Virus record (IMG/VR): IMGVR_UViG_2512047007_000001
Coordinates: 4,917-68,916 of that record
Length of the DNA stretch: 64,000 nt
Source of the DNA: a virus
Strand: one strand, 5' to 3'
Shown in pieces: positions 10,311 through 29,506 of the stretch (positions are counted from its first letter, which is position 1; the number at the start of each line of letters is the position of its first letter). The translations under genes were made by a program, and so were the position numbers. Under the pieces are notes generated by a model. That model ran no database searches. It saw nothing but the letters and a program-made list of their open reading frames with translations, and was not told where the DNA came from.

Positions 10311-10356
10311 CCGCCCGCACAGCACGGGCCGCCCCCGCGGGAATCGGGGGCGGCCC
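10311..10356 (+). repeat. 46-bp direct repeat, copy 1 (hairpin)
   Basis: Identical to 11179-11224. Confidence 0.9.
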
Positions 10357-14696: not shown

Positions 14697-15161
14697 ATGG
14701 CCAGCACCGCCGCCGCCTACGCCGCCGCGTACGCCGTCCTCACCGCCGCCCACGAAGCCGGGGACTACATCGTCCAGCGGGACGCCGACGCCCGCGACAA
14801 GGGCAAGCACGGCCACACCGGCCGCGCCGCCTGCGCCCGCCACGTGGCCTCCTACACCGCCACCCAGGCCCTCGCGCTCCTCGCCGCCCACCGCGGCCTC
14901 CGCCTCCACCTCAACCCCCGCCGCGCCCTCCTCGGCCTCGGCCTCTCCGCCGCCACCCACTACATCGCCGACCGCTGCGCAACCCACTGGGCGGACGACA
15001 CCGCCACGGCGCCGCTCCTCGTCCGCGCCGCCCACGCCACCGGCAAGGGGGCGTGGCTCCAGCGCGATCCCGGCGCCGGCGCCCTCATCGACCAGGCGTG
15101 GCACAAAGCGTGCATCGGCGTCGCCGCCGCCGTTGCCGCCTCCGGACGCCGCACCTGCTGA
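14697..15161 (+). CDS. DUF3307-like membrane protein
   Basis: AHEAGDYIVQ, H..Y, HYIAD, DQAWH His/Asp motifs; RBS AAGGAG. Confidence 0.7.
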   Translation: MASTAAAYAAAYAVLTAAHEAGDYIVQRDADARDKGKHGHTGRAACARHVASYTATQALALLAAHRGLRLHLNPRRALLGLGLSAATHYIADRCATHWADDTATAPLLVRAAHATGKGAWLQRDPGAGALIDQAWHKACIGVAAAVAASGRRTC

Positions 15162-15175
15162 GTTCCGGCCGCTTG

Positions 15176-15205
15176 CTAACTATGCATCATGTGATGCATA
15201 GTTAG
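15176..15205. promoter_or_regulatory. AT-rich palindromic operator
   Basis: CTAACTATGCATCA-TG-TGATGCATAGTTAG, perfect 14-bp arms. Confidence 0.7.
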
Positions 15206-15240
15206 GTCGAGGCCGAGGGACCAGCCCGCCGGCCCAGCGA

Positions 15241-15615
15241 ATGGAGCGTGTACCGATGCCGAGCGCGGACAGCCTTCAGCAGGCCATCAAGGACGCCACG
15301 GAGGAGCGGGCAAGGTCGCTGGACGCGAGCCTCCCCGACGACGAGCGGAAGGACGCGGCGGAGTCCGCCGACATCTACTGGCGCAGCATCATGCACGTCG
15401 CCACGCGCCTCGCCGAGGTCTGCAGGAAGGAGGGCGCCGCCCTGAGCCCCCGACTCCGAGCCCTGGCACCCGACGACTACAGCCGCGAGGCGCAGGAGCT
15501 GGACGACCTCTACCGCACCTGGACGGCCGCGACCTATGACATGGAGGCCCTGGCGGCACACGCCGCACTCCGCCAGGACGCCGAGCGGACGCTCTCCGCA
15601 GAAAGGGCGGGCTGA
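15241..15615 (+). CDS. Hypothetical alpha-helical protein (start may be 15256)
   Basis: ORF downstream of the palindrome; stop overlaps next start. Confidence 0.7.
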   Translation: MERVPMPSADSLQQAIKDATEERARSLDASLPDDERKDAAESADIYWRSIMHVATRLAEVCRKEGAALSPRLRALAPDDYSREAQELDDLYRTWTAATYDMEALAAHAALRQDAERTLSAERAG

Positions 15616-15830
15616 TGCCCGAGCTATGGACCATTGAGCAAGTGGCGCAGGAGCTCGGCATCAAGCCGAACGCCGCTCGCGGACAGCTCTCCCGCTGGGG
15701 CATCCGCCGCGCGGGCACCGGCTCCTCACCGGCCGGGCGCATCACCGCCCAGTACGACGCCGACGAGGTCCGTGATGCAGCCGCCCGCCGGCCCGGCCGC
15801 GGCGCCCGAACCGACCTCCTCAACAAGTAA
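15615..15830 (+). CDS. HTH DNA-binding protein (excisionase/MerR-like)
   Basis: WTIEQVAQELGIKPNAARGQLSR; C-terminal PGRGARTDL. Confidence 0.8.
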   Translation: MPELWTIEQVAQELGIKPNAARGQLSRWGIRRAGTGSSPAGRITAQYDADEVRDAAARRPGRGARTDLLNK

Positions 15831-15853
15831 CCGGCCCACCGCCAGATCCGCAC

Positions 15854-15888
15854 AAAGGCCCCCCTCGACGCATCGAGGGGGGCCTCCT
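15854..15888. terminator. Hairpin between convergent genes
   Basis: AGGCCCCCCTCGA..TCGAGGGGGGCCT. Confidence 0.7.
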
Positions 15889-15902
15889 GGCGTGTGCCTG
15901 CC

Positions 15903-16382
15903 CTACTCCGGCGTCCGCTCCACCGTCGACACCCGCACGGACCGAATGTCCGCCAGTTCCCCGTTCCGAATCTCCGCCTCCAGGGGCGCCGTGTCCCCCT
16001 TCGAGGTCTTCCCCACCCCCAGCTTGTCCGCCGTCACCCCGGTGGACCCCAGGACATCCCCGTCCCCGTCGAGGAACTCCAGCCCCACGAAGTACGAGGC
16101 CCCCTCTTCACCGCGGTTGGTGATCGAGTACGGGGTGACGTACGCCCCCGGCCCCCACACGTCGTGATCCTGGAACCCAGCCTTGCCCAGCTCGACATCC
16201 CGCGCGGCCACATCCTCCTCGCCACCCTTGTCCCCCGCCGGAGCCGCCCCGGCCGGCGCCGACGAACCGGTCGACGCGGGCGCCCCCTCGCCGCCACCCG
16301 TGCCCTCGCTCGACCCCGCGCAGCCGCTCACCAGCGCAGCCGCAGCCACCACCGCACCCACGTACACCCCAACACGCCGCAT
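15903..16382 (-). CDS. Lipoprotein with FxLYD-like Ig-fold domain
   Basis: LVSGC lipobox; YSITN...YFVGLEFLDGDGDVLG. Confidence 0.75.
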   Translation of the reverse strand: MRRVGVYVGAVVAAAALVSGCAGSSEGTGGGEGAPASTGSSAPAGAAPAGDKGGEEDVAARDVELGKAGFQDHDVWGPGAYVTPYSITNRGEEGASYFVGLEFLDGDGDVLGSTGVTADKLGVGKTSKGDTAPLEAEIRNGELADIRSVRVSTVERTPE

Positions 16383-16612
16383 AGCCCTCTCCCATCTGAT
16401 CAGTGCAAAGCCCCGACGCTAGCGACCCGGCACCCGGCCCCCGGGGCAATCCCGGCCGCACCCCCCGAACGAGGGGCGCACCGATCGGGCGTACGGCAGC
16501 ACGGGCCGGCCCACTCTGATCACCCCGAAGCGCTACGGTCGCACCGCTCATCGGGAACCGCGTCGGCCGGGGAATTCGACGCGGACCGGGCCGCTCCGGC
16601 GGTAGCTCCACA

Positions 16613-16650
16613 CGAACAGCCCCCCAACCGATCGGTTGGGGGGCTGTTCG
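16613..16650. terminator. Perfect 38-bp palindrome downstream of the GntR gene
   Basis: CGAACAGCCCCCCAACCGA|TCGGTTGGGGGGCTGTTCG. Confidence 0.7.
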
Positions 16651-16685
16651 CCTGCTCACTTCTCAGCCGCGCCTCGCCGGCCGCG

Positions 16686-17411
16686 TCACACGTCGCACTC
16701 GGCCACCAGCCGCCGGCCAGGCGCCAGGTAGTCCACCGCGTACTCCGTCGGCTCCCCGCGCTGGTCCCAGTAGTGGTTGGTCGTCGCCAGCACCTCGGTC
16801 CCCGCAGGCACGCCCAGGTGCTCCGCGACGTCCAGCGGCACCGGCCGCACCTCATGGGTATCCCGACGCCGGGCCACTCGCCGCCCCGTCCGCTCCTCCA
16901 CGAGCCCGAACGTCATCTTCGGCAGCGGGGCCAGCTGTTCGTACTCCGGCATCAGGTCGGCCAGGGCGCCCGTGACCCACGTCGAGGACACCGCGACCAC
17001 CCCGCCGACGTCGAGGTACCGGCGGCGCCGCCGGGCCACCACCGTCCCGACCTCGACCCCGAGCGCGTCAGCCACCGCCCGGTCGGCTTCCTCGCGCCGG
17101 ACGTCCAGGAGCTCGACGCGCTCGCCCTCGCCGATCGAGGGCCGCGCGGACAGCATCCGCGTCAGCCGCTCCGCGCCGGCCGTCGCCGGGCTCGGGGTAC
17201 GCACGATCGTGCCGATACCGGGCACCGTGTCCACGTACCCCCGGTCACGCAACACCGCCGTCACCCGTGCCGCCGTCGCGGCGGACACGCCCTCCGCCCG
17301 CTCGATCTCCCGCACCGACGGCGCACGGTCACCAGGGCGCAGCCGCCCCGCCTCGATGTCGGTGATGATCTTCTCCGCGATCCGCCGGTACGGCGGCAGG
17401 GCCTGACTCAT
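16686..17411 (-). CDS. GntR/HutC-subfamily repressor with UTRA domain (KorSA-like)
   Basis: YRRIAEKI..DIEAGRLRPGDRAPSVREI...GYVDTVPGIGTIV plus UTRA-type C-terminus. Confidence 0.9.
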   Translation of the reverse strand: MSQALPPYRRIAEKIITDIEAGRLRPGDRAPSVREIERAEGVSAATAARVTAVLRDRGYVDTVPGIGTIVRTPSPATAGAERLTRMLSARPSIGEGERVELLDVRREEADRAVADALGVEVGTVVARRRRRYLDVGGVVAVSSTWVTGALADLMPEYEQLAPLPKMTFGLVEERTGRRVARRRDTHEVRPVPLDVAEHLGVPAGTEVLATTNHYWDQRGEPTEYAVDYLAPGRRLVAECDV

Positions 17412-17452
17412 CCCGGCCTCCCCTCTCTCTGATCACTGAAAGTGCCTGATGC

Positions 17453-17490
17453 GGCACCGCTTGACACCATGCGGTGCCTTAGTACACCTT
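17453..17490. promoter_or_regulatory. Divergent promoter with inverted-repeat operator
   Basis: GGCACCGC-TTGACACCAT-GCGGTGCC: 8-bp arms enclose a perfect TTGACA. Confidence 0.65.
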
Positions 17491-17581
17491 AGAGCGCACC
17501 GAGGCTCCTCGAAAGCCCACGGGGACCCAACGTCCGCGCGGACTGGCCACTAACCGCCCGCGCGAACGCCCCGCCCCGGCC

Positions 17582-17599
17582 CGGGTGGTCGCACACCCG
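17582..17599 (+). promoter_or_regulatory. GUCGCA-loop hairpin (leader element, copy 1)
   Basis: CGGGTG-GTCGCA-CACCCG. Confidence 0.6.
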
Positions 17600-17656
17600 C
17601 GAGGAGCCACCCCGACCCCACGTCGCACCCCCCACAGGGTGGAATCGGAGGAAGCC

Positions 17657-17749
17657 ATGACGGTGGAGCACGATCTCAGCAAGCCGGAGGAGCGGAAGGA
17701 ACTCAAGGACAAGGTTCGAGACGCCAACCGACGCACCGGCAAGGAATGA
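17657..17749 (+). CDS. 30-aa charged peptide
   Basis: Strong RBS GGAGG; MTVEHDLSKPEERKELKDKVRDANRRTGKE. Confidence 0.55.
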   Translation: MTVEHDLSKPEERKELKDKVRDANRRTGKE

Positions 17750-17843
17750 TCTGTCCTCTACGCCACTTCGGCCCCCGCACCAACCCTGGTGCGGGGGCCG
17801 AAGTGCGTTTACCTGGGGGTTGGGTCCCTCGCTGGAGGGGAGG

Positions 17844-18125
17844 TCACTCCGTCGGGCGGTTTTTCTCGCTCAGGTCCGTCCTCTCTCCCTGGCGAGTGAC
17901 GCGCGCACGGAAGTACGTCAGGACGTCCGGCCAGTTCCACAGCCGAATCCGGCCGTGCTCGTACACCGTCGCCGGAAAGTCGGGGTCGGTCGCGACGAGC
18001 TGCCGAATGCGGGGTGCCCCCACGCGCTTGACGCCAGCCGCCACCAGGCGGTCCGGCATGGCCGGGATCGACACCAAATCGGGCTGGCCCTCCTGCCGCT
18101 CCGCTCCCAGGGGGGAGTGAGACAT
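17844..18125 (-). CDS. AlpA/excisionase-like DNA-binding protein
   Basis: RIRQLVATDPDFPATVYEHGRIRLWNWPDVLTYF; C-terminal RQGERTDL. Confidence 0.7.
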   Translation of the reverse strand: MSHSPLGAERQEGQPDLVSIPAMPDRLVAAGVKRVGAPRIRQLVATDPDFPATVYEHGRIRLWNWPDVLTYFRARVTRQGERTDLSEKNRPTE

Positions 18126-18191
18126 GCCGCCATCCTTCCAACTTATTTGCGTTAGCGCAAACGCCACGCTAGTCTCGCAATCTCAGCACGA

Positions 18192-18306
18192 AGCCCCGAC
18201 CCGCGGTCGCACGCGGAGTCGGGGCTGCTGAAAAAGCGGCGGTGCCCGGTAGTCGCATACCGGGCACCGCCTCAACCCCGGCTCGTGGTCGCACACGAGG
18301 TCCGGG
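18192..18306 (+). promoter_or_regulatory. Three tandem GUCGCA-loop hairpins
   Basis: Loops at 18206, 18252 and 18288; unrelated stems, identical hexaloop. Confidence 0.7.
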
Positions 18307-18340
18307 CCGCCACCCCCTGCCGCTAACAGGAGATGACGCA

Positions 18341-18748
18341 ATGCAGCACTTTACGGGGCGTGTCCCCGTGACCTCTACGGCCGGGGGCGCCCAGCGCGCC
18401 GCCGTGGCCGTGGCCTCCCGGAGCGAGGTCGGGGAGGTGCTGGCCGCGATGGCCGGCCACTTCGCCGCCCGTCGGCCGGGGGACCGCATCACCCCCCTTT
18501 CCGTCCAGGCGTGCACCGCCGGGACCGTCTACAACCTCCGTGGGCGCACCTGCCGCAGCAGCGGCAAGGCCCTCTCGAAGGCCGTCGTGGACGCCCTCCC
18601 CGAGCCGGACCTCTCCAGCACCCGCGGCCAGTACGCGGCCCAGCTGGAGCACACCGCCGCGGCGTACGGCTGGGGCCCGGACGACGACAAGCCCGTCATC
18701 CCGAGCATCCCCCGGCCGCGCCCGAGCACGGGGAGGGCCGGCCAGTGA
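18341..18748 (+). CDS. Hypothetical protein
   Basis: RBS AGGAG; first gene after the hairpin leader. Confidence 0.65.
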   Translation: MQHFTGRVPVTSTAGGAQRAAVAVASRSEVGEVLAAMAGHFAARRPGDRITPLSVQACTAGTVYNLRGRTCRSSGKALSKAVVDALPEPDLSSTRGQYAAQLEHTAAAYGWGPDDDKPVIPSIPRPRPSTGRAGQ

Positions 18749-18921
18749 AGCTCAAGCCGAACAAGATCTTCGCCGAGCCCGCGACGGTGGAGGCGTGCCA
18801 GCAGGACCGGGGCACCGCCGCCGAGCGCGCGGCCCGGGCCGAGGACGCCACCGCGCAGCAGGAGAACACCCGCTGGCACGCCAAGGCCGCGGCCGAGGCC
18901 CCGAAGGGGCGTGCGCGGTGA
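18745..18921 (+). CDS. Small hypothetical protein
   Basis: Coupled ORF. Confidence 0.55.
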   Translation: MKLKPNKIFAEPATVEACQQDRGTAAERAARAEDATAQQENTRWHAKAAAEAPKGRAR

Positions 18922-19034
18922 CGTGCTGCGGGCGCGAGATGCGCAACGAGAACGGCGTCCTGGTCTGCGGCAAGTGCGGCAGCTCGTACCAGTCGTCCAC
19001 CACCGGAAAGCGCGCCCAGCCCCACGGGCGCTGA
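18918..19034 (+). CDS. Tiny Zn-ribbon peptide
   Basis: CCG...CGKC; coupled. Confidence 0.45.
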   Translation: MTCCGREMRNENGVLVCGKCGSSYQSSTTGKRAQPHGR

Positions 19035-19144
19035 CGCCCCCTCGCCCCACCACGAGACCGCCGTGGGCGGTGCCCCCTCTTCTTCCTTCTTCGCGCCGCC
19101 CACGGCGCCATTCCGCCATCCCGAAACCCCCCTTGGAGACCCCG

Positions 19145-19588
19145 ATGAACATCAAGCGCATCGCCAGCAACAGCGCCCTCGTCGCCACCCCGGTCGCGAT
19201 CGCTCTTGCCGCCACCCTGCTGATCCCGACCCCGGCCGCCGCCGACCCGCTCGCCCCGCCGACCGGCGGCTGCCCCGGCACCCGCGTCGGCACGTACAGC
19301 CTCAGCACCTCCAGCCACATCGAGATCTACTACTCGCCCGCCCAGGGCGGCACGAACTGCGTGAAGACCGTCTCCTCGAAGACGTCGGCGCGCTACCTCT
19401 ACGCGCAGGCCGCGCTCGTCGGCACCGGCCAGGTCAACTCGGACGAGGGCCTGTACCGGTCGTACGCCGGGCCGATCACCCTCACCGGCACCGACGGCCG
19501 GTGCATCTCCGTGGCAGCCAAGGCCAGCCCGAGCACACGCCCGGCCGAGGCGACCCGACGGTCGCTGGACGCCCTGCACTGCGGCTGA
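19145..19588 (+). CDS. Secreted spore-associated protein A (SapA)-like protein
   Basis: Signal peptide (PAAA/D); IYYS..GGTNCV, DEGLYRSYAGPI, GRCI, four Cys. Confidence 0.65.
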   Translation: MNIKRIASNSALVATPVAIALAATLLIPTPAAADPLAPPTGGCPGTRVGTYSLSTSSHIEIYYSPAQGGTNCVKTVSSKTSARYLYAQAALVGTGQVNSDEGLYRSYAGPITLTGTDGRCISVAAKASPSTRPAEATRRSLDALHCG

Positions 19589-19696
19589 CCCCCCCCAGCC
19601 CCGGCCCCGCACCCAGCGGGGGCCGCGACGACGCCGGATCGAAACCGCGCCCGGGGCACCAGAGCTCTCCCAGACCGACGCCTTCAGGAGCCCGCC

Positions 19697-20167
19697 ATGC
19701 TTCGCTTCCGCAGCACCCGCACCTCCACCACCCCCGAGGTCCTGGCCGCCCTCTGGGCCGACATCGCCGACCTCCGCCGCGACATCGCCCGAGACCGCGC
19801 CGAGCGGCACGAGGTCACCGAGTCGCTGCGCCACCAACTCGCGGAGGCCCGCGCGGCTCTCATCGCCGCCGAGACCGAGCGGGACGGCCTCCGCGCCCAG
19901 CAGCTCCTCGACACCGAAGACCGCGCCGCCCTGCGACTGCTCCTGCGCACCGCACGGAAGCAGCAGGCCGGACCGAGCCAGGTCTACGTCCTCACCCGCG
20001 ACCGGGCCTACCACAGCGCCCACATCACCCGGGACGCCGCCATGGATGCCGCCGCAGCCGCCGGCGCCCCCTGCGACGGGTGGTCCTCCCACCCGGTCGA
20101 CGCCGAACCGCCGCAGGGCAGCACGTCCTGGTCCATCCGGACCGTGCCGCTCGGAGACGCCTCGTGA
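19697..20167 (+). CDS. Coiled-coil hypothetical protein
   Basis: RBS AGGAG; heptad-rich. Confidence 0.7.
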   Translation: MLRFRSTRTSTTPEVLAALWADIADLRRDIARDRAERHEVTESLRHQLAEARAALIAAETERDGLRAQQLLDTEDRAALRLLLRTARKQQAGPSQVYVLTRDRAYHSAHITRDAAMDAAAAAGAPCDGWSSHPVDAEPPQGSTSWSIRTVPLGDAS

Positions 20168-20241
20168 TCCGGACCCTCGTCGTCCTGTCGCTGATCACCA
20201 GCCTCAGCCTCCTCTGCTGGACCGTCTACGCCGCCGCGTAG
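20164..20241 (+). CDS. 25-aa transmembrane peptide
   Basis: GTG overlaps upstream stop; fully hydrophobic. Confidence 0.4.
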   Translation: MIRTLVVLSLITSLSLLCWTVYAAA

Positions 20242-20283
20242 CCCCGACCCCGTACCCACCCACCTGAGTGCGAAAGGCGCACC

Positions 20284-21483
20284 ATGACCACCCCCCAAGA
20301 GCAGCAGCCGCGCGTACCTGGCGTCCGCTACCGCAAGGTACGGCGCACCCGTCAGGAGACCACGGTCATCGGCGGACGAGCGTCCACCCGGACCGTCGAG
20401 TACGACGCCTGGGTGCCCGAGCCCCCGCGGGACTGGGACGCGCTCATCCTGCGGGGCGCCATTGGTGTCGCCGTCGGCTTCACGGCCGTGGCGATCGTGG
20501 CGACCACCGCCAGCATCGGCGGGCTGCTGTCCTCGCTCGTCCCGACGGTCGTGGCGTACGGCATGGGCTGTGTTTTCGCAGCGGGATGGCTGTACTGCCT
20601 CGCAATCGAATGGCTCAACCGCACCCAGCCCAGCCGCGCGCTCCCCGCCCGGATCACCGGCTGGATCTTCCTGGCCTTCAGCATGGGGGCGGTCTACGCC
20701 TACGGCGCCCAGCTCGGGGTGCACTGGGCGGGCGGTATCGGCGCGTGCATCGACGTGCTCGCCAAAACCGCATGGTGGCTGCTCCTGCGCGAGTACGCGG
20801 TCCCGCTGTCCCCGGCCGTCGCGCACTGGGTCCACGACCAAGAACAGGCCCTTGCAGGGCAGTCCCTCCTCGCGACCCGCCTGCGGCGTCTCAACCGGCG
20901 CGCGGCGTACGACGAAGTTGTGGGCGGCGTCGAGTATCAGGCCGCGAGCGCGATCCTGGCGGCCGATGCCCGGCCGGCCGTCACTGGTGCTGCCCCTCAG
21001 ACGACGACCGAGGACACCGGCGGGGACAGGGCGGGGACGCCTGTCCCCGCTGCCCCCGTTGGTCCCGTCGCCCCTCCGGCTCCGGTGTCCCCCGCTGTCC
21101 CCCCGGCTCCGACCGGCCCGGTGTCCACGCCCACAGGGACAACGTCCGCCCCGGCGTCCCCGGCGTCCCCGCCCCCGGCGGACGTAGGCCCGTTCGTCAA
21201 GTCCCTCGGCTTCCCCGTCTCTCACGTCCCGGCCGCACCCCCTGCACCCCCGGCAGCCGCAGTGCAGGAGCCCACAGTGCAGCCGACGCCGACGGCACCG
21301 CTCCACGTCGTGGACGGCCCCCCGGTCAGCAAGACGGCGTTTATCCGATCCGTCCTCGCGGAGACCCCGGACATCGCCCTGGACGACCTCACCACCAAGG
21401 TCAGGGCGCAGTTCGGGGACAAGCCCGACCTCCGCAAGGACGTGCGGCGGCTCCAGGCCCGCATCGAGGGCCGCGCCTCCTGA
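20284..21483 (+). CDS. Four-TM protein with Pro-rich linker and C-terminal HTH-like domain (DUF2637/Spd-like)
   Basis: Hydrophobic helices, GGGGACA patch, KTAFIRSVLAETPDIALDDL. Confidence 0.7.
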   Translation: MTTPQEQQPRVPGVRYRKVRRTRQETTVIGGRASTRTVEYDAWVPEPPRDWDALILRGAIGVAVGFTAVAIVATTASIGGLLSSLVPTVVAYGMGCVFAAGWLYCLAIEWLNRTQPSRALPARITGWIFLAFSMGAVYAYGAQLGVHWAGGIGACIDVLAKTAWWLLLREYAVPLSPAVAHWVHDQEQALAGQSLLATRLRRLNRRAAYDEVVGGVEYQAASAILAADARPAVTGAAPQTTTEDTGGDRAGTPVPAAPVGPVAPPAPVSPAVPPAPTGPVSTPTGTTSAPASPASPPPADVGPFVKSLGFPVSHVPAAPPAPPAAAVQEPTVQPTPTAPLHVVDGPPVSKTAFIRSVLAETPDIALDDLTTKVRAQFGDKPDLRKDVRRLQARIEGRAS

Positions 21484-21535
21484 TCCCTCGTCCCTCCTGT
21501 CCCTTCCACCACCCCTTGACTGCCGGGAGTACGGC

Positions 21536-22672
21536 ATGACCACCCACCCCGAGACCGACGCCGACGAGGCCCGCATCCGGTCGCTCCTCATCGCGGCCGG
21601 CGTCGGCCCGCTCGCGGACCACCACACCGCCCCCGACACCACCGTGGACGCCGACCCGGCGCCGAACAGCGCGGGGCAAGGCGACGAGCCGGGCGCCGAC
21701 GACGAGACCGACTGGCGCGCCCGCCTCCTCCGCCTCACCGAGCGCCTCGAGGAGAGGGCCGGCGTGTCTCCGCCCACCCCGGTCGACGCCGACGAGGACC
21801 ACGACGACAAGGGTGACGAGGGCCAGGACGACGAGGACGAGGCCGCCCCGGCGGCCGGAGCGAACCGGATGCCGGACTGGCGGACCGGCGCCCACATCGA
21901 CCTCACCAAGCCCCAGCCGGACGACGCCGACGACGCGGACGACGACGCCCCCACGAAGGCGTCCGGCGGCGGGGGAGCGGACGCCGCCGCCGAGGACGAC
22001 GACCAGGACGACGACGCCGACGAGCAGGGCCACGACGCCGAGGGCGACCCGGAGGCGGGCCTCCCCTGGTGGCAGCGCACCGCCGGACGGCTGGAGCGCA
22101 AAGCCGGGGTGGAGCCCCCCGCCGGCACCGAGCCCCCGCCCGGCCCGGGAGGCAACGGCGGGGGAGACGACGACACGACCGGCGACGACGCGGGAGACGA
22201 CGACCACGCCCCGGCCGCCAAGAAGACCCCCGCCCCGAGCGGGGGCGGGGGAGCGGCACGGTTCTGGCCCTCGTGGGGCAGCGGCCGACGCCCCAAGTTC
22301 GACGCCCCCGGCCTCCACCAGGACCGCCGCTCCGTCCTCGACATCATCCGCTCCACGCCCCGCCACGTCTGGTGGCTCCTCTACTCCGGCAGCGCCGCCG
22401 CCGTCGGCTGGCACTTCGGCTGGCCCCAGTGGGTGAGCGGCGCCCTGCTCCGGCTGGAGACCACCCAGGCGTCGTGGACCACCGTCGACTGCATCACCAG
22501 CTACGCCCTCGCGGCCTGCGTTTTCGCGGTCGACTCCGCTACCCGGAAGTGGTTTTACCCCCTGGCCTGGGCCACCCGCGTTCCCACCGCCTCCCTCGTC
22601 CTCGGCTTCCTGCTGTGGGGCGACCCCACCCCGATCTCCGACCTGGTCACCCCTGAACGGACAAGCGCATGA
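21536..22672 (+). CDS. Acidic low-complexity protein with C-terminal TM segments
   Basis: Asp-rich tracts; duplicated W..R...RLE..AGV.PP motif. Confidence 0.7.
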   Translation: MTTHPETDADEARIRSLLIAAGVGPLADHHTAPDTTVDADPAPNSAGQGDEPGADDETDWRARLLRLTERLEERAGVSPPTPVDADEDHDDKGDEGQDDEDEAAPAAGANRMPDWRTGAHIDLTKPQPDDADDADDDAPTKASGGGGADAAAEDDDQDDDADEQGHDAEGDPEAGLPWWQRTAGRLERKAGVEPPAGTEPPPGPGGNGGGDDDTTGDDAGDDDHAPAAKKTPAPSGGGGAARFWPSWGSGRRPKFDAPGLHQDRRSVLDIIRSTPRHVWWLLYSGSAAAVGWHFGWPQWVSGALLRLETTQASWTTVDCITSYALAACVFAVDSATRKWFYPLAWATRVPTASLVLGFLLWGDPTPISDLVTPERTSA

Positions 22673-23076
22673 GCTTCCTCGCTGGCATCGGCCTCTTCGG
22701 TCTCGCCGCCATCCTGACTGTTGTCCTCTGGTTCGGAAGCAAGGAGAACGAGGGGGGAAAGGTCAAGCTGTCGTGGGGCTGGTGCCTCGGCCTCAGCCTC
22801 CTCGCCGGTGTCTCATACTCCGCCGCGGGCTTCCCCTTCGACCTCATCGGCTCCGCGATCAACGACCTGCTCGGCGTCGTCTCGGCTGTCGCGCCCGACC
22901 TCAAGATGCCTGCCTTGGCCGCTCTTATGCTCGCGCTCGCGATGTTCCGAAAGTTCACGAAGCGCGGCATTAGCTGCCTGTGCATCGTGTGGATTCACGT
23001 CGCCACCGGGGCCGGCGGACCGTACGCCCGGTTCGCCGCCGCGCTGGCCGACGCCGCGGAGAGGCTGGCCGCATGA
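22669..23076 (+). CDS. Multi-TM membrane protein
   Basis: Hydrophobic; coupled. Confidence 0.75.
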   Translation: MSFLAGIGLFGLAAILTVVLWFGSKENEGGKVKLSWGWCLGLSLLAGVSYSAAGFPFDLIGSAINDLLGVVSAVAPDLKMPALAALMLALAMFRKFTKRGISCLCIVWIHVATGAGGPYARFAAALADAAERLAA

Positions 23077-24401
23077 CCACCGTCGAGCAGCTGGGGGAGG
23101 GGGCCGTCCTCCCGGCCCCTACGCGCCTCCCTGAGGCCCCCGCCCCGGTCGAGGCCCCCGCCCCGGCCGGGGCGGGCCCGTCCCGCCCCCACGGGCCCCT
23201 CACCACCGCCGTGGAGACCGGCGACCCTGCGGGGGAGCAGCCCCTCCCGGACCAGGCCGACAGCGCGAAGGACGCCGAGCCGGAGGACACCGAGGAGCCC
23301 GGCCCTCGCCGTGCCCTGGCGATGCCGGCGCTCCGCCCGTACCTGCCCGACCGCACCACCCCACGCATCCTCGCCCGGGAGGCCGTGGCCACCGCCCGCA
23401 GTGCGCACCGTGCACGGCGCGCCGGACGGCTCGCCGTACGGGCCACCGCCTACCTCGTCCGGCGCGGCCTCCGGCTCCTCCGCGACTGCGCCACCGTCCT
23501 CTACATCGCCGCCGCCGCCTGGTGCACCGGAAAGGTCGGCAAGCGCTTCCACCCCCTCGTCCGCCTTATCGCCATTCCGGGCGGCACCGTATACGCGCTC
23601 ATCCAGTCCCCTCGTGACGTCCAGATCGGCGCACTAATCGTCGTGCTCGCCGTCGTCGTCCTTACGGCGATGGCCGTATCCCGGAAGGCGGATGCCAACT
23701 CGGAGGAGGAGCCGGTTAAGGCTGCGGAGAAGTCCACCGAGAAGACCGAAGAGGAGGGCGCCGGAAAGGCCGAGAAGAAGGCCACCGGAAAGGGGAAGCG
23801 GACCCCCAAGGGCGGGAAGAAGGCGCGGCCCGCCTGGTCCCTCGCGGGGGCCCTGGAAAGCGCCCTCGCCCGACCCGCCCCCGACTCCCCCGCCGGCCCC
23901 TCCCCGCAGACCCCCGCCGAGCCCTCGGGTGAGGCCCCGCAGGAGCCCCCACAGGAGGCCCCGCAGGAGGCCCCGGCCCCGCCTTCCCGGGACGACCTCG
24001 CGCGCTCCCTCCACGCCCACCTGCGGGGCGCCCGCGGGGTCCTCCTCACCACCCTCCAGGAGGCCCACAACCTCCCCTCCACCAAGGCCGTGAAAGCGGC
24101 CCTCGACGGGGCCGGCATCCGGCACCGGGAGGGGGTCCGCGCAGCGGTCCTCGACGGGGGCCAGGTGAAGCGGAAGAACGGGCCCGGCGTACACCTGGAA
24201 GACATCCCCCCACTGCCGACCTCCCGAGAGGGGTCCCCTGTAGGCGTTGTTGCCGCAGGTCAGGAGCCAACGCCAACGCCAACAACACCCGGAGAGGCCC
24301 CCGAGAAGGGGTTGAGTGCACAGGGCACCGATCTTCCCTTCGACGTCGTCCCCGACCCCGAGCGCGGCCCCTCCGCGTGGAAGGTGATTCAGCGCCCCTG
24401 A
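23073..24401 (+). CDS. Membrane protein with Pro-rich and charged linkers
   Basis: Central TM helices; coupled. Confidence 0.7.
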   Translation: MTTVEQLGEGAVLPAPTRLPEAPAPVEAPAPAGAGPSRPHGPLTTAVETGDPAGEQPLPDQADSAKDAEPEDTEEPGPRRALAMPALRPYLPDRTTPRILAREAVATARSAHRARRAGRLAVRATAYLVRRGLRLLRDCATVLYIAAAAWCTGKVGKRFHPLVRLIAIPGGTVYALIQSPRDVQIGALIVVLAVVVLTAMAVSRKADANSEEEPVKAAEKSTEKTEEEGAGKAEKKATGKGKRTPKGGKKARPAWSLAGALESALARPAPDSPAGPSPQTPAEPSGEAPQEPPQEAPQEAPAPPSRDDLARSLHAHLRGARGVLLTTLQEAHNLPSTKAVKAALDGAGIRHREGVRAAVLDGGQVKRKNGPGVHLEDIPPLPTSREGSPVGVVAAGQEPTPTPTTPGEAPEKGLSAQGTDLPFDVVPDPERGPSAWKVIQRP

Positions 24402-24488
24402 CGCCCCCGGCCCGGCTATCGTCAGTACCCCGCCCCGGCGCGACCCTCGCGCCGCACCGCCCCGCACAGCCGCTCCCCGGAGGACACG

Positions 24489-24731
24489 ATGGCCCAGTCC
24501 CAGTACCGGTGCACACAGTGCCGCGAGACCTCCCCGCCGGTCGGCCGGCAGGAGCTCGACCGCATCCGCGCCCGGCACCGCCGAGTGGCGCACGGGGGCC
24601 TCATCCCGGACGGGGAGCAGGTGATCGAGGAGCCCCGCGTCCGGCTGGTCGACATGCCCAGGCCGCAGAAGATCGCGTGCGTGCTCCTCCTGGCATTCAT
24701 CGTCTTCGCGTGGGCCACGGGAATGCTGTAG
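24489..24731 (+). CDS. Small Zn-finger protein with C-terminal TM anchor
   Basis: YRCTQC...RHRRVAH; RBS GGAGG. Confidence 0.7.
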   Translation: MAQSQYRCTQCRETSPPVGRQELDRIRARHRRVAHGGLIPDGEQVIEEPRVRLVDMPRPQKIACVLLLAFIVFAWATGML

Positions 24732-24739
24732 GGGCGCGG

Positions 24740-24787
24740 GAAAGCCGAAAGGCCGCACAGTGCGCACTGTGCGGCCTTTCGGCTTTC
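24740..24787. terminator. Perfect 48-bp palindrome, bidirectional terminator
   Basis: GAAAGCCGAAAGGCCGCACAGTGC|GCACTGTGCGGCCTTTCGGCTTTC between convergent genes. Confidence 0.8.
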
Positions 24788-24803
24788 TCACGGGGCGGGA
24801 GTA

Positions 24804-25301
24804 TCAGGAGGATCGGCTTTCCCGATGCCTCTTCGTGGAGGCGCTGCGGGCAATCTCGCCGATCCAGTTCCGGTCATAGGGGACATGGGCCGACATCTCT
24901 TCCGGGGTGGCGCCGGCCTCGTATTCGGTCACGATCTCCTTGTGCACGAGCGGACGGGTCCGCTCGATAGCGCCTTCCGCCCGCTCCCATACGGCGGTGA
25001 GCTGGTCGAGTTCGGCCAGGGCGGCGGCCTGGACCTCCGGGTCGTACTTGGGCGGCGGGCCGACGGCGCGCGGGCCTCGAAGGGCCGGGATTTCGGCGCG
25101 GCGCCCCAGCTCCCCGATCCAGTTCCGGTCGTAGGGGGTGTGCGCGGCGATCTTTCCGGGCGGGGCGCTGCGGGACCGGAGGTGCCTGAGGATCGCGTCA
25201 TGTAGGGCATCGCGGGCGGTGGCCTGGTCGGCCTCGGCCTTTTCGAGGGCCGCGGCAAGCTTCTTCAGCCGGGTGAAGGGCCGGGGGCGGGTGGGGGTCA
25301 T
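24804..25301 (-). CDS. Tandem-duplicated HTH regulator
   Basis: H(T/V)PYDRNWIGE occurs twice; divergent from the 25376 promoter. Confidence 0.7.
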   Translation of the reverse strand: MTPTRPRPFTRLKKLAAALEKAEADQATARDALHDAILRHLRSRSAPPGKIAAHTPYDRNWIGELGRRAEIPALRGPRAVGPPPKYDPEVQAAALAELDQLTAVWERAEGAIERTRPLVHKEIVTEYEAGATPEEMSAHVPYDRNWIGEIARSASTKRHRESRSS

Positions 25302-25365
25302 GGCGAGCACTATGCCATCCGGGTTTACAAAGCGGCAAGGCTAAGGGGGCGGCGAGCCGTCCAGC

Positions 25366-25404
25366 GCTAAGCGCGTTGACATTGCAAAGTGGCTGTGCTT
25401 ATCT
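25366..25404 (+). promoter_or_regulatory. Conserved early promoter
   Basis: GCTAAGC-N3-TTGACATTGCAAA-N4-CTGTGC; same layout at 28055. Confidence 0.65.
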
Positions 25405-25452
25405 AGTGGTGCGCGGGGTCGCCGGGACCCCGCCCAGCACGAGGAGCCGGAC

Positions 25453-26484
25453 ATGCCCCGCACGATCACCCGCCCCCAGGCCGAGGCCCTGCGCACCGCC
25501 GCTCCCATCACCGAGTGGCAGGACCTCCCCGACGCGCACCCCCTGGCCCGTCTCAAGGCACGCCGGGTGACCGGCGCCCGCCGCTCCACCGTCGACGTCC
25601 TCAAGCGCCTGGGCCTGGTCGAGGACGCGGAGGCCGGCACCAGCGAGACGACCGGCCGCCCCTGGACCGTCGTGACCGCACTCACCCCCGCCGGCGAAGC
25701 CCTCGCCGCCACCCTGGAAGAGGGCGGCCCGCTCCCCACCCTGGACGCCGTCGCCACCGCCGTTGCCGCACAGACCGCCCCGGCCGCCGCCGACCAGCCC
25801 GCCACCCCCGGCGACGTCGTCCGCCCCGGCGTCACGATCCGCAAGGACGGCCGCTCGCAGTGGACCGTGGAGCGCGACGGCCACATGGGCGTCATCCACG
25901 ACGAGAAGGGCATGACCCGCGGCCGGTGGGCCGCCTGGTCCCCCTTCGCCCGCACCCGCCACAGCATCGCCGCGTTCACCGACGACCCGGCCGAGGCCGT
26001 AGACGCGATCCTCGCCACCCTCCCCGTCCTCGTCTCCACCCTCGCCGCCACCAGCGGCCACACCGCGGCGGACATCCTGGACGAGGCCGGCACCCTCGCC
26101 GCCGAGTGGGCCGACCAGGGCCCCCGCGCCGTCCACCACACCCCGGTCGACGGCGGCCGGACGGAGCTGTCCGGCCCGGCCGCCCTCGTCATCCTCGACG
26201 CCCTCACAACCCCCGCCACCGAAGCGCCGGCCGAGGAGCCCGCCCCCGTCCCCGCCGAGCCGGAGTGGCGCACCCTCAAGGGCCTCACCGCCCCGTTCTT
26301 CATCTGGGGCACGGAAGACGAGCGCAGCTGGCGCCCCGCCGGGGACCGGGAGCAGTGCACCGGCGACCCGCTCCGCATCGAGCGCACGTGGATGCGCGGA
26401 ACCCGGTACGCCGAGGACACGGCCGGCCGGGAGATTCACCTCTGGGGCGTCGCGACCAAGTATTGGGCCGCCCCCGCGGCCTGA
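25453..26484 (+). CDS. Multidomain hypothetical protein
   Basis: RBS GAGGAG; strong codon bias. Confidence 0.8.
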   Translation: MPRTITRPQAEALRTAAPITEWQDLPDAHPLARLKARRVTGARRSTVDVLKRLGLVEDAEAGTSETTGRPWTVVTALTPAGEALAATLEEGGPLPTLDAVATAVAAQTAPAAADQPATPGDVVRPGVTIRKDGRSQWTVERDGHMGVIHDEKGMTRGRWAAWSPFARTRHSIAAFTDDPAEAVDAILATLPVLVSTLAATSGHTAADILDEAGTLAAEWADQGPRAVHHTPVDGGRTELSGPAALVILDALTTPATEAPAEEPAPVPAEPEWRTLKGLTAPFFIWGTEDERSWRPAGDREQCTGDPLRIERTWMRGTRYAEDTAGREIHLWGVATKYWAAPAA

Positions 26485-26620
26485 CCCCCTCTGCCACGGG
26501 CCGGGGGCCGCCTACCCCCGGCCCGGCCCCACCCGGGCACCCTCCGGACCGCCCGCCCCCCGGCGGACCGCCCGGAGGGTGCCCGGACACCAGAGTCCGC
26601 ACCTCGACCACGGAGGAACC

Positions 26621-27703
26621 GTGACCACCCAGACCGCCCCGGCCACCTTCCAGGCCGGCGACCGCATCCTCTGCGCGGACGGCGTCGCCCGCACCGTCCG
26701 CGCCATGGCCCCGCTCACCGCCGGCGAGCCCGTCCGCGTCGTCGTGGAGGACGGAACGGAGTGGGCCGCGCTCACCTGCCGGCGCGCCAACCAGGAGGAC
26801 CTGGCCGCCGCCCGCCTCCTCGCGTCCGCATCCGCCGCCCGCGTCCGCCTGGCCGACCCGGACGCCCCCCAGTGGCGCGCCGCCCTCGCCGACCTTGGCG
26901 CCGCAGAGGACTACCTCAAGGACGCCGACCCGGACCCGCGGGTCCGCGCCGCCATGGCCGAGGGGGAAGCATCCGCCGCCCGGACCCTGGCTGAGATCGG
27001 CATGCAGACGGCCGCCGTGGAGACGCCGGAGGAGACCGCCCTCCGCGAGGAGCTGGCCGCCCTCTTCACAGCCCTGGCAGGGGACCGCAACGCTCACTGC
27101 TTCCAGCCCGTCCACCTCCGCGGCGCGGACCACCCGGCGGCCTGGACATACCGCACCGGCTACGGCTCCGCCGCCCGGTACGGGTGGATCACCGCCCGCA
27201 CCGGGGAGCAGTGCACCGCGCCGGTGGAGTACCGGTGGCGGGCGGAGGAGGCCGCCGTGACGGCCGTAAAGGCGGAGGACCGCGCCGCCGCCTCGCCGGC
27301 ATTCGCCTTCACCGCCATGTCTCCGGCCGACCTCCGCGTGGCCCTCGACCACTTCCGCGACCGCGCCGCACGCACCCGCGGCACTGCCCCGCGTTACGTC
27401 CTGGACGACAACGTGGCGGCGGCCCTCAAGGTGCTGGACGCCGCCACCTTCGCAGAGGTCCCCGACGGCTTCACCCCGGAGTCCATGGAGGACGTGGACG
27501 TGGACGTGACCGGACTCGTGGTCCAGCCCCTCGCCGCGACCGGCGTGACGGCGTACTGGGTGGAGAACGGCCGCCATGTCGCCCTGTCCGGCCGCCCGCA
27601 CACGGCGCAGCTCAGGAGCATCCGCCGGATGTTCGAGGAGGCCGGGTGGTCGCTCGCCCCCGGCAGCGGCTGTGCGGTGAGCGCCTACCGGCCCACCACC
27701 TGA
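26621..27703 (+). CDS. Multidomain hypothetical protein
   Basis: RBS GGAGG plus GTG. Confidence 0.75.
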   Translation: MTTQTAPATFQAGDRILCADGVARTVRAMAPLTAGEPVRVVVEDGTEWAALTCRRANQEDLAAARLLASASAARVRLADPDAPQWRAALADLGAAEDYLKDADPDPRVRAAMAEGEASAARTLAEIGMQTAAVETPEETALREELAALFTALAGDRNAHCFQPVHLRGADHPAAWTYRTGYGSAARYGWITARTGEQCTAPVEYRWRAEEAAVTAVKAEDRAAASPAFAFTAMSPADLRVALDHFRDRAARTRGTAPRYVLDDNVAAALKVLDAATFAEVPDGFTPESMEDVDVDVTGLVVQPLAATGVTAYWVENGRHVALSGRPHTAQLRSIRRMFEEAGWSLAPGSGCAVSAYRPTT

Positions 27704-27743
27704 CCCCACGCACCCGACCCGCCTACCGCCACCAGGAGGACAC

Positions 27744-27950
27744 GTGAAGCACCTGCGTCAGAACTACTGCACCGAGGTCCAGATTCGCACCGCACCCGGT
27801 GCCGACCTCTCCACCGTCTATTGGGACTTCACCGGCCCCGCCGGCCTCTCGGACGTCGAGGTCCACGCCCGCGCGGCGCGGGCCGCCCTCGCCGAGGTGC
27901 CCGGGGAAGTCGTCGGCTCCCGCGTCATCACCGACGGCCACGCGTACTGA
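27744..27950 (+). CDS. Small hypothetical protein
   Basis: RBS AGGAGG. Confidence 0.7.
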   Translation: MKHLRQNYCTEVQIRTAPGADLSTVYWDFTGPAGLSDVEVHARAARAALAEVPGEVVGSRVITDGHAY

Positions 27951-27960
27951 CACACCCTGA

Positions 27961-27998
27961 GACGAGCCCCCGCCGGGACGCCCGGCGGGGGCTCGTCC
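27961..27998 (+). terminator. GC hairpin
   Basis: GACGAGCCCCCGCCGGG...CCCGGCGGGGGCTCGTC. Confidence 0.6.
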
Positions 27999-28054
27999 GT
28001 GCCTGGGGAGCTGCCGAGTCACCGTCACGGTCAGGCAACACGCCAAGCAAAGAG

Positions 28055-28093
28055 GCTAAGCAAGTTGAGATTGCAAACTCACTGTGCCAACAT
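28055..28093 (+). promoter_or_regulatory. Conserved early promoter, copy 2
   Basis: GCTAAGC-N3-TTGAGATTGCAAA-N4-CTGTGC-CAACAT. Confidence 0.65.
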
Positions 28094-28143
28094 GGGGGTG
28101 CAGGCAGGGCGAGGGGCCCGGCCTCAGACGACGGGAGCACACC

Positions 28144-28908
28144 ATGAGCAAGACCACCGCCGCCGCCGCCCGCCACCTCGCCAACCTCCTCGCCGCCGAG
28201 GACGCCCTCACCGCCGCCACCCGCGAGGAAGCCCGCGCCACCCGCGCCGCCACCCGCGCCACCGCCCGCGTCCTCAAGGCCCGCGCCCTTCGCACCGAGG
28301 CCCGCAAGGCCGCCCGCGCCGCCGAGCGCACCGGCAAGGGCATCGCCGCCGCCACCCGCCGCCTCGCCACCCGCGAAGCCCGCCTCGCCGAGCTGGTCGA
28401 CGCCGCCCGCGCCCGCAAGGCCGAGGCCACCACCGCCCGCCGCGCCCGCCGCGCCGCCGAGCGCCGCGTAGAGCGCATCGCCCGCCGCGCCGCACTCGCC
28501 GCCACCCGCAGCGTCGAGAAGATCGCCGCCACCCTCGGGGACGTCGCCCTCACCCCGGCCCCGGAGACGGACCCGGTCCTCCCCGTCGACGAGCTCCCCG
28601 CCGCGGAGGTCGTGGAGGCTCACGCGGTTCAGTACGCAGCCCTGGACCGCCAGGCGAAGGACCTCGCCAAGCTCGCGGAGGCGGAGCGCACCTGGCTGCG
28701 GCAGCTCCCCAACGGCACCTACGGCCGGGTCGTGATCATGCGCACCCCGGGTCGGTCCGTGCTGGACGGCGCGGCCGTGGCCCTGGCCTACACCGCCCGC
28801 GGCGAGGTCCCCCCGCGGAAGTCGACGCGGACCACGTTCAAGTGCGACGCGACCGCCGTCCTGGCCGCCGAAGAGGCGGACGCCTCCGCCCTCACCCTCA
28901 CCGCCTGA
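28144..28908 (+). CDS. Ala/Arg-rich coiled-coil protein
   Basis: RBS GGAG; long heptad N-terminus. Confidence 0.75.
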   Translation: MSKTTAAAARHLANLLAAEDALTAATREEARATRAATRATARVLKARALRTEARKAARAAERTGKGIAAATRRLATREARLAELVDAARARKAEATTARRARRAAERRVERIARRAALAATRSVEKIAATLGDVALTPAPETDPVLPVDELPAAEVVEAHAVQYAALDRQAKDLAKLAEAERTWLRQLPNGTYGRVVIMRTPGRSVLDGAAVALAYTARGEVPPRKSTRTTFKCDATAVLAAEEADASALTLTA

Positions 28909-28978
28909 CCCACACCACCCACAACACCCGAGAGCGACCCGCCGGGCGCCCAACAACGCCCGGCCCGAAGGAGGACCC

Positions 28979-29506
28979 GTGTTCGCCGAGACCGTGCTCC
29001 ACTCCGGGGGCATCACCGAGGGCCACGCCAGCGAGGCCCACGCCGCCCACCTCATCCGCCGCGCGCTCCACCGCGGCTACACCGTCACCCCCACCCCCGA
29101 CGGCGGCGCCTGCATCACCTGGACCGCCCGGCGCCTGGGCAGCGGCAGCCTGATCGAGGAGCCCCGCTCCGTCGTCCTCACCCCCCACACCCCCGCCGGA
29201 CACCTCCACGCCAGCGTCCGCACCGCCCTCCACGCCATCGCCCGGTCGGCCGACGCACACGCCTACCTCGACAAGCAGGACCGGGACCGCCCCCGCCCCG
29301 GCCTCCGCATCCGCACCAGCGCCGACGCCGAGCCGGTCGACGTCCGCACCACCTCCCGCCTCTACGGGTGCCGCCTCGTCACCGAGGAGCGCGGCAGGGT
29401 CCGCCTCACGCTCACCGCCACGCTCGCGCTCCTCGCCGCCCACGGCGCCGACCGCGACGCCCTGACCGCCGTGTTCCTCCCGGCCCCGGCCGCCGTCCCC
29501 GCCTGA
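28979..29506 (+). CDS. Hypothetical protein
   Basis: RBS GGAGG. Confidence 0.7.
   Translation: MFAETVLHSGGITEGHASEAHAAHLIRRALHRGYTVTPTPDGGACITWTARRLGSGSLIEEPRSVVLTPHTPAGHLHASVRTALHAIARSADAHAYLDKQDRDRPRPGLRIRTSADAEPVDVRTTSRLYGCRLVTEERGRVRLTLTATLALLAAHGADRDALTAVFLPAPAAVPA

Follow-up and report, generated by a model that had tools for sequence, protein, structure and literature searches.

Why does a phage put the same six-base loop on top of several RNA hairpins whose stems differ in sequence? The question is raised by a 64,000-nucleotide stretch of DNA (the window), bases 4917-68916 of the IMG/VR virus record IMGVR_UViG_2512047007_000001, a single 78,185-bp contig with 73% G+C that belongs to a tailed Streptomyces phage. 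Four hairpins with the loop GUCGCA (H1 to H4) lie there in two leaders, three of them in tandem ahead of an operon of small proteins and membrane proteins. Here we present in silico evidence that the tandem hairpins are conserved helices with covarying stems, that their loops vary in concert between related phages, and that the minus strand carries a -10 motif, U-rich tails and a hairpin which forms on that strand only. The reading we favour, to which we assign a probability of about one half on sequence analysis, is that a sense leader is overlapped by a cis antisense RNA, the U-turn loops serving as kissing and specificity tags.

The hairpins and their homologues

The four hairpins and the ribosome-binding region behind them are arranged as follows.

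17582-17599, plus strand: H1, cgggtg-GTCGCA-cacccg with its loop at 17588, a solitary fourth hairpin in the leader of an open reading frame (ORF) of 30 amino acids (aa)
18184-18230, plus strand: H2, loop GUCGCA at 18206-18211, a 5-bp upper and a 9-bp lower stem, extended by CAGC/GCUG
18238-18271, plus strand: H3, loop GUCGCA at 18252-18257, a perfect 14-bp stem
18277-18306, plus strand: H4, loop GUCGCA at 18288-18293, a stem of 6+5 bp
18312-18343, plus strand: C-rich spacer, Shine-Dalgarno (SD) sequence AGGAG (18328-18332) and start codon ATG (18341-18343) of a 135-aa first gene

The initial annotation of this DNA had described four hairpins with an identical GUCGCA hexaloop, and inspection as well as a whole-genome hexamer count located them exactly where it had placed them. 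GTCGCA occurs 60 times in the genome, 20 times on the plus and 40 times on the minus strand, and four of the 60 copies are flanked by a stem of at least 5 bp. All four lie on the plus strand within the 725 nt from 17582 to 18306, a clustering that rules out a chance origin. The hexamer itself is not enriched (48 copies in the window versus 59 expected); the signal therefore is the hairpin context together with the loop. The leader RNA (18180-18350) folds at -95 kcal/mol with a z-score (z) of -6.5, and the structure of the H1 leader is weaker (z = -2.2). Linkers between H2, H3 and H4 measure about 5-13 nt, and ~22 nt separate the end of H4 from the SD sequence. The stems, which had been called unrelated, do differ in sequence, but with the CCCGG...GYR / YRC...CCGGG frame common to all of them they have the appearance of paralogues. 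Conservation extends to the closing pairs: the 12-mer GTGGTCGCACAC is present in both H1 and H4, and three closing pairs are common to the two. Searched on both strands from 15000 to 21000, no Rfam covariance model reached the gathering score of its family (best match 29 bits). The minus-strand segment 18274-18359, which covers H4 and the ribosome-binding site and reaches into the first gene, was called by ARAGORN as an 86-nt tRNA-Ala (anticodon AGC); we rejected this tRNA, which is probably a false positive produced by the hairpin. In every genome compared (G000, G002-G008, W01), GTCGCA is about twice as common on one strand as on the other, probably a codon-usage effect, and in the array-bearing genomes the array lies on the strand with the rarer GTCGCA (20 versus 40 copies in G000).

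The proposal that the hairpins lie in leaders directly downstream of promoter and operator regions, three of them in tandem, was borne out by the features upstream of them.

17461-17466, plus strand: TTGACA of a promoter-like region upstream of H1, read by eye
17844-18125, minus strand: divergent gene of a 93-aa regulator with no Pfam or PHROG match
18146-18175, plus strand: rightward promoter and operator, -35 TTGCGT (18147-18152), 17-nt spacer and -10 TAGTCT (18170-18175), read by eye

The palindrome TTTGCGTTAGCGCAAA (18146-18161) overlaps the rightward promoter, and a palindrome-bearing promoter-like stretch is found at the same place in every homologous cassette. Neither of the promoters read by eye (18147-18175 and the TTGACA region) was recovered in a scan for the strict sigma-70 consensus. 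H2 probably sits at the extreme 5' end of the rightward transcript. The 93-aa regulator is probably a winged-helix DNA binder and the repressor that acts on the operator; its homologues adjoin the array in G003, G006 and G008 and not in G004, G005 and G009. The operon 3' of the array extends over ~6.4 kb to about 24731. One of its proteins has a weak SpdB_N match in relatives, hence the term spd-like for this operon.

At least 19 distinct sequences of Streptomyces phages or prophages contain a homologous array, one per genome. All four hairpins are retained in the close relatives L002-L005 and L013. Pattern scans of IMG/VR and of species-representative genomes were used to find further triple arrays, which occur in the Streptomyces proviruses and genomes L097, L138, L139, L143, L152, L198, L211, L225, L255 and L313. 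Each complete genome holds exactly one array, always between a divergent small regulator and the rightward operon. The extra hairpin H1 is limited to the window's own clade, and no other genome has an additional copy. An array with the loops GGTGACAC in another Streptomyces phage has the same architecture and belongs almost certainly to the same cassette family; the window differs by its GUCGCA loops and by H1, which one clade possesses. Neither the 50,697 phage nor the 72,556 plasmid records searched by blastn gave a match to the array, and a limited literature search found no description of the element.

Across 19 cassettes, 96% of the cells are paired and 16 of the 33 pairs have changed on both sides. 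Double-change cells number 49, compared with 11.4 in shuffles, and none of 500 shuffles reaches 49. When the pairing partners are slid by 1-3 columns, the covariation signal collapses in all of these controls. H2 of L002 may serve as an example: its rebuilt stem shows a compensatory double change at one place, along with three G.U pairs that fit the plus strand only. From these pervasive compensatory changes it follows that the hairpins are real, selected intrastrand helices. Selection on structure plus loop, as the initial annotation had suspected, is thus supported by covarying stems and by conservation in relatives.

The same data bear on the idea that the element acts as DNA, i.e. as iteron-like direct repeats or extruded cruciforms to which a protein of replication, partition or transfer binds (a clt-like site of the spd-like system, for instance), or as a signal for single-strand initiation. 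The 12-bp core, present in three direct copies with 36-46-bp spacing, would suit such an element, and the resemblance of the downstream operon to the spread genes of Streptomyces plasmids (the weak SpdB_N match) points in the same direction. However, compensatory changes and G.U pairs select an intrastrand helix and not duplex sequence, and bulges of variable length would shift the half-sites of a duplex. Moreover, the element is always found between promoter and ribosome-binding site in a single orientation, and a scan of the genes around the array, from 15903 to 24401, detected no FtsK/TraB-like or Rep-like domain. We consider a role at the DNA level very improbable.

The 90-kb provirus G004 (the record of L139) has only three detectable proteins in common with this phage, yet carries a perfect array. 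The shared proteins are those of two spd-like operon genes (homologues of 21536-22672 and 24489-24731) and of one early gene. Judged by such sequences, cassette and operon appear to travel jointly, as one module, from one phage lineage to another.

Signals on the opposite strand

On the minus strand, the region between the array and the first codons of the operon displays the following features.

18348-18353, minus strand: candidate -10 TAAAGT of a leftward promoter, within codons 3-5 of the first gene
18230-18342, minus strand: predicted antisense RNA of ~110 nt with a 5' anti-SD hairpin, H4' and H3' (loops UGCGAC) and a U tail

In the first codons of the 19 cassettes, A...TA makes up the only invariant or nearly invariant columns, which the minus strand reads as TAnnnT. 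This motif stands at this place in 17 of the 19 cassettes, against a background of 4.6e-4 per position; elsewhere it takes the form of TAGAGT, TACAGT, TACGAT, TAAGGT, TAGCAT and others. T-ending codons, which supply the T of the motif, are rare in Streptomyces. Directly upstream of the candidate -10 on the minus strand, 18354-18370 form a perfect palindrome, ACGGGGCGTGTCCCCGT, which is seen in the window's clade only and might affect the leftward promoter as an operator or as a roadblock.

A second signal is the composition of the hairpin flanks. The 10 nt 5' of each cassette's longest hairpin, usually H3, are 41% A and hence U-rich on the minus strand, while the 3' flank has 7% T. In the window, the terminator scan picked out H3' together with GCUUUUUCAG on the minus strand as a terminator-like site, and thus as a candidate for the end of the antisense RNA.

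The third signal is a structure of the minus strand. Here 18312-18343 fold into a hairpin of 14 bp, including 5 G.U pairs, in which the anti-SD sequence is contained; its energy is -21.0 kcal/mol (z = -2.9), compared with -7.2 kcal/mol (z = +1.1) on the plus strand. The stretch from H4 to the start codon gives a minus-strand anti-SD hairpin of 12-16 bp with 2-5 G.U pairs in 17 of 17 distinct cassettes. Its G.U pairs are A.C mismatches on the plus strand, and the mean z is -2.9 on the minus versus -0.6 on the plus strand, as determined by folding each sequence along with its shuffles. RNAalifold applied to a MAFFT alignment of this minus-strand hairpin found no consensus; the alignment was inconsistent with the structure.

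The predicted antisense RNA, whose presumed ends are set by the -10 motif and the U tail, folds into three clean hairpins at -73.6 kcal/mol (z = -5.9). Transcription may continue past this end, through H2', in the direction of the 93-aa regulator gene. Folding-energy tests on H2-H4 do not separate the two strands, as expected if both are used. Given this set of strand-specific signals, we consider the existence of a leftward RNA quite likely.

Loop variation and candidate partners of the loops

The initial annotation presupposed that the loop sequence is conserved in homologues. The hairpins are kept in relatives; the GUCGCA loop is not universal, since other loops or a single generic hairpin occur. 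The locus was searched with the conserved SD-proximal part of the leader in place of the loops (CCTGCC..ACAGGAG.TGAC), with a GUGACA triple and with the H3 stem and a free loop. All three loops are GUGACA in L632, L793 and L845 and GUUGCA in L787 and L802, and L834 has the loops GUGACA, GUAGCA and GUAGCA; having the same H2, H3 and H4 stems and the same 3' part of the leader, these cassettes are plainly homologous to the one in the window. The loops of L438 are GUCGGA, GUCGGA and GUCGAA, H4 is decaying in L442 and L494, and L468 combines one GUCGCA hairpin with one generic hairpin. With at least five loop variants seen, the general loop reads G-U-N-R-C-A. Position 1 is a G in nearly all loops, and the loops usually change together in all three hairpins. 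U-N-R (UCG, UUG, UGA, UAG) is kept in every plus-strand variant, the base before the U being G and not the pyrimidine of YUNR. The loop type is independent of the type of divergent repressor and of the first gene, and at least three unrelated regulator types are found with the same loop. That the loops are arginine codons (CGC, CGG or CGA plus a purine) for the anticodon of tRNA-Arg, as suggested by L438, was dropped in view of the GUGACA, GUUGCA and GUAGCA loops of homologous cassettes.

The same operon leader contains one hairpin only, of 13 bp and with a long variable loop, in TurkishDelight, the closest isolated relative of the phage, and in L006, L012, L433, L447, L451, L458, L466, L470 and L475. 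In the single-hairpin leaders of L433 and L447 the stems are alike and the long loops are near reverse complements, as if the top of the hairpin had been flipped. A second, unrelated family of two hairpins with matched six-base loops was seen in other high-GC viral contigs, where it lies between the end of one gene and the start of the next, often with a third, unpaired copy of the hexamer just upstream. Its loops are CGCGAA in L789, L795, L816 and L850 and CGCTAA / TTAGCG in L825, L857, L755, L768 and L824. Matched loops seem to be a recurrent theme in actinophages.

Leaders with one generic hairpin suggest that the hairpins might be purely structural, acting as leftward terminators which shield the repressor and promoter region from antisense transcription and as a protective 5' structure of the rightward mRNA, with the loop kept for folding (a stable U-turn hexaloop) or by ancestry and having no specific partner. 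Relatives with the same operon and the same SD-proximal leader indeed make the hairpin itself the common denominator, and the U-rich tails on the minus strand fit the terminator part. Other strong hairpins of this phage, however, carry quite different loops, H1 repeats the loop and the closing pairs in another leader, and neither drift nor folding stability predicts loops that nearly always match within a cassette and differ between homologous cassettes. A purely structural role is therefore, in our estimate, improbable.

A loop that matches within and varies between cassettes might also be the site of a sequence-specific RNA-binding protein of phage or host. On the rightward leader, such a protein would be an antiterminator in the manner of N/boxB or put, a regulator of the ANTAR kind, or a repressor of translation; multivalent binding would then follow from the identity of the loops, and loop variants would reflect co-evolving specificity. 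A loop and closing pairs that stay constant while the stems covary are the classic mark of a hairpin bound by protein, the array lies close to the promoter ahead of an operon of roughly 6.4 kb, and concerted loop changes fit specificity switches as among the N proteins of lambdoid phages. The initial annotation had favoured a boxB-like antitermination site with a 30-aa peptide as the possible loop-binding factor. The peptide is encoded in the region of H1, whose further features are listed here.

16686-17411, minus strand: GntR/UTRA regulator (KorSA-like; Pfam GntR and UTRA), divergent from the promoter ahead of H1
17657-17749, plus strand: highly charged 30-aa ORF MTVEHDLSKPEERKELKDKVRDANRRTGKE
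17764-17805: 19-bp hairpin after the 30-aa ORF

The 30-aa ORF looks like a real micro-protein. In L002 the peptide is identical despite differences in the DNA, the changes thus being synonymous, and copies in G006 (53% identical) and G008 (42%) occupy the same place between the small regulator and the GntR gene. As a partner of the loops it finds no support: homologues were detected only in G002, G006 and, weakly, G008, and not in the array-bearing G003, G004, G005 and G007. When 124 ORFs of this genome were compared by tblastn with seven related genomes and with TurkishDelight, which alone among the relatives compared as whole genomes has no such loops, no protein was present in all array-bearing genomes and absent from TurkishDelight. 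Further candidates were tried and rejected. The divergent regulator is argued against by the three or more regulator types that accompany the same loop and by one type that occurs with different loops, and autoregulation by the first gene by close homologues that follow loop-less leaders (L012, TurkishDelight). An operator of the HutC/GntR type (TGGTC half-site) lacks a second half-site, and the stems vary. As to mimicry of or pairing with rRNA, the 16S and 23S rRNA of one Streptomyces genome contain neither a hairpin-loop GUCGCA nor UGCGAC. In 61 Streptomyces genomes, GTGGTCGCACAC is not enriched (about 105 matches, fewer than for the reversed control), and the chromosomal matches examined are solitary, most of them without an extended stem; a host regulon is therefore unlikely, and a host protein would not explain phage-specific loops.

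Read-through of downstream hairpins, the purpose ascribed to the boxB-like site, was likewise not supported, as neither the stretch behind the array nor the operon yielded an intrinsic terminator on the plus strand. The scan gave no terminator-like site on the plus strand from 16500 to 29500, where it has to be considered that U-tract terminators are poor predictors in high-GC actinomycetes and that Rho-dependent sites cannot be scanned for. Elsewhere in the early region, at 10338 and 11206, two identical hairpins with 12-bp stems and the loop CGGGAAT, 868 nt apart, look like duplicated terminator-like elements. The array resembles lambda nut (boxA/boxB with N) and HK022 put in that a structured RNA close to the promoter precedes a long phage operon. 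It differs from lambda nut by a U-N-R hexaloop instead of a GNRA-like pentaloop (GAAAA / GACAA type), by three identical copies, and by the lack of a co-occurring N-like protein and of visible plus-strand terminators to be read through. BoxB-like antitermination thus receives no support from the loop or from the protein comparison, and the strand signals indicate an antisense RNA instead.

ANTAR targets consist of two tandem hexaloop hairpins joined by a linker of 2-25 nt (PMC8164766), and their loops require A at position 1 and G at position 4 (PMC3369931, PMC8164766). Tandem hexaloop hairpins with conserved closing pairs and short linkers in 5' leaders of actinobacterial genes recall such targets (PMC3369931, PMC8164766). 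Unlike these, the array has G at loop position 1, and position 4 is G here and A in the GUGACA cassettes; it comprises three hairpins instead of two, with stems of 9-16 bp in place of mini-hairpins. The array overlaps neither a terminator nor the ribosome-binding site, and no alternative terminator was seen. The ANTAR domain (PF03861) was not found in five phage genomes. Considering also that the loop type follows neither the adjacent regulator nor the first gene, and that a protein would leave the minus-strand signals unexplained, we regard protein binding as rather unlikely.

A proposed antisense mechanism and its meaning

In the antisense reading, the array would be the overlap of two facing transcription units. 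Rightward, the operator-controlled promoter (18147-18175) would produce the mRNA of the spd-like membrane operon, with H2-H3-H4, the C-rich spacer and the ribosome-binding site as its 5' leader. Leftward, the -10-only promoter (TAAAGT, 18353-18348) would produce an antisense RNA of ~110 nt which starts opposite the start codon, with the anti-SD hairpin at its 5' end and then H4' and H3', and which terminates in the U-rich tail that follows H3' (or H2'). The sense G-U-N-R-C-A loops, whose U-turn signature resembles that of anticodon loops and of the loops by which known antisense systems recognise their targets, would make the first contact by kissing the complementary UGYNAC loops on the antisense side. 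From there, pairing would spread across the ribosome-binding site and the start codon, and translation of the first gene would be blocked, the operon mRNA destabilised, or both. This would be a second, post-transcriptional brake on a potentially toxic operon, added to the repressor. Leftward read-through into the regulator gene and collision of the facing polymerases may provide extra control. We infer that the antisense RNA is produced, that the loops kiss and that expression is affected.

As the loops of one cassette are identical, any antisense hairpin could dock on any leader hairpin, including H1. The loop sequence would then be a cassette-specific address that differs between related phages, and its concerted change the RNA counterpart of heteroimmunity. 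A trans-acting address is our proposed explanation for the repetition of loop and closing pairs by H1 in a second leader. Since the loop type is independent of repressor and first gene, the distant provirus G004 has the array, and no ANTAR domain was found in five phage genomes, the cassette looks self-contained. One may go further and suppose that the loops are programmable address tags of an RNA-only, protein-free immunity or compatibility system, in which one antisense RNA per phage reads every tagged hairpin, including those of an incoming related phage, and from which a phage escapes by changing all tags together; we put this forward as a tentative possibility.

Several observations weigh against the antisense reading. 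Its weakest link is the identity of the loops: a cis antisense RNA is complementary whatever the loops and does not require them to be identical, which is the best argument for a protein instead, and docking and address are themselves conjectural. The candidate leftward promoter has no recognisable -35, and TAnnnT is missing from L802 and G007. The U tails are short (3-5 U) and absent from a few cassettes (L097, L198). Strand tests on the array hairpins are mixed, H2 favouring the plus and H4 slightly the minus strand, with internal G.U pairs versus A.C mismatches at 13 to 5. The A-rich first codons and A-rich linkers could have other causes, and, the cassettes being mutually related, counts across them are not independent.

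The closest known design is that of plasmid systems which combine a repressor with a countertranscript, such as pMV158 (CopG and RNAII), pIP501 (CopR and RNAIII), R1 (CopB and CopA/CopT) and ColE1 (RNAI/RNAII) (PMC4485353). A repressor-controlled promoter is common to both, as would be an antisense promoter located in the leader or early in the target gene, a short antisense RNA rich in hairpins and ended by a terminator, recognition by U-turn loops and a dose-sensitive target, all of which are predicted here. By analysis in silico the locus has an opposite-strand promoter motif, a candidate antisense terminator and antisense-only structure, by which countertranscripts are recognised. The target, however, is a phage spd-like membrane operon here and a replication gene there, and only here are the loops identical within a cassette and change together between elements.

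Phages have antisense RNAs of their own in immunity, namely c4 of P1/P7, which acts on ant and constitutes an Rfam family, and sar of P22. In P1/P7, short complementary loop sequences set the specificity (heteroimmunity). Like c4 and sar, the RNA proposed here would be a small phage-encoded antisense RNA that blocks translation of a downstream operon. Unlike c4, with which there is no match by sequence or Rfam, and which is processed from the same transcript and acts downstream of itself, it would come from a facing promoter and overlap its target. The design matches that of the known countertranscript and immunity systems; the spd-like target and the matched, co-varying loops set it apart from them.

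The host phage of this cassette encodes a YqaJ exonuclease, an RNase T-like exonuclease and a Mu-F-like head protein, with some phage families recognised in PHROG only, and several IMG/VR proviruses of 72-90 kb are related to it. To our knowledge, few RNA regulators are known in high-GC actinomycetes. If the antisense reading is true, a promoter under repressor control, a leader of three hairpins and an opposing antisense promoter would form a compact, self-contained cassette, whose specificity resides in one six-base loop repeated three times. With at least five loop variants, the family would be a natural set of orthogonal RNA switches for these bacteria. It would explain how a plasmid-like, probably toxic spread (spd-like) operon is silenced in phages, and the role of loop tags as determinants of cross-immunity between related prophages would become directly testable. 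If the loops are in fact address tags, they would constitute a new, portable, protein-free specificity code over a plasmid-like spread operon in Streptomyces phages.

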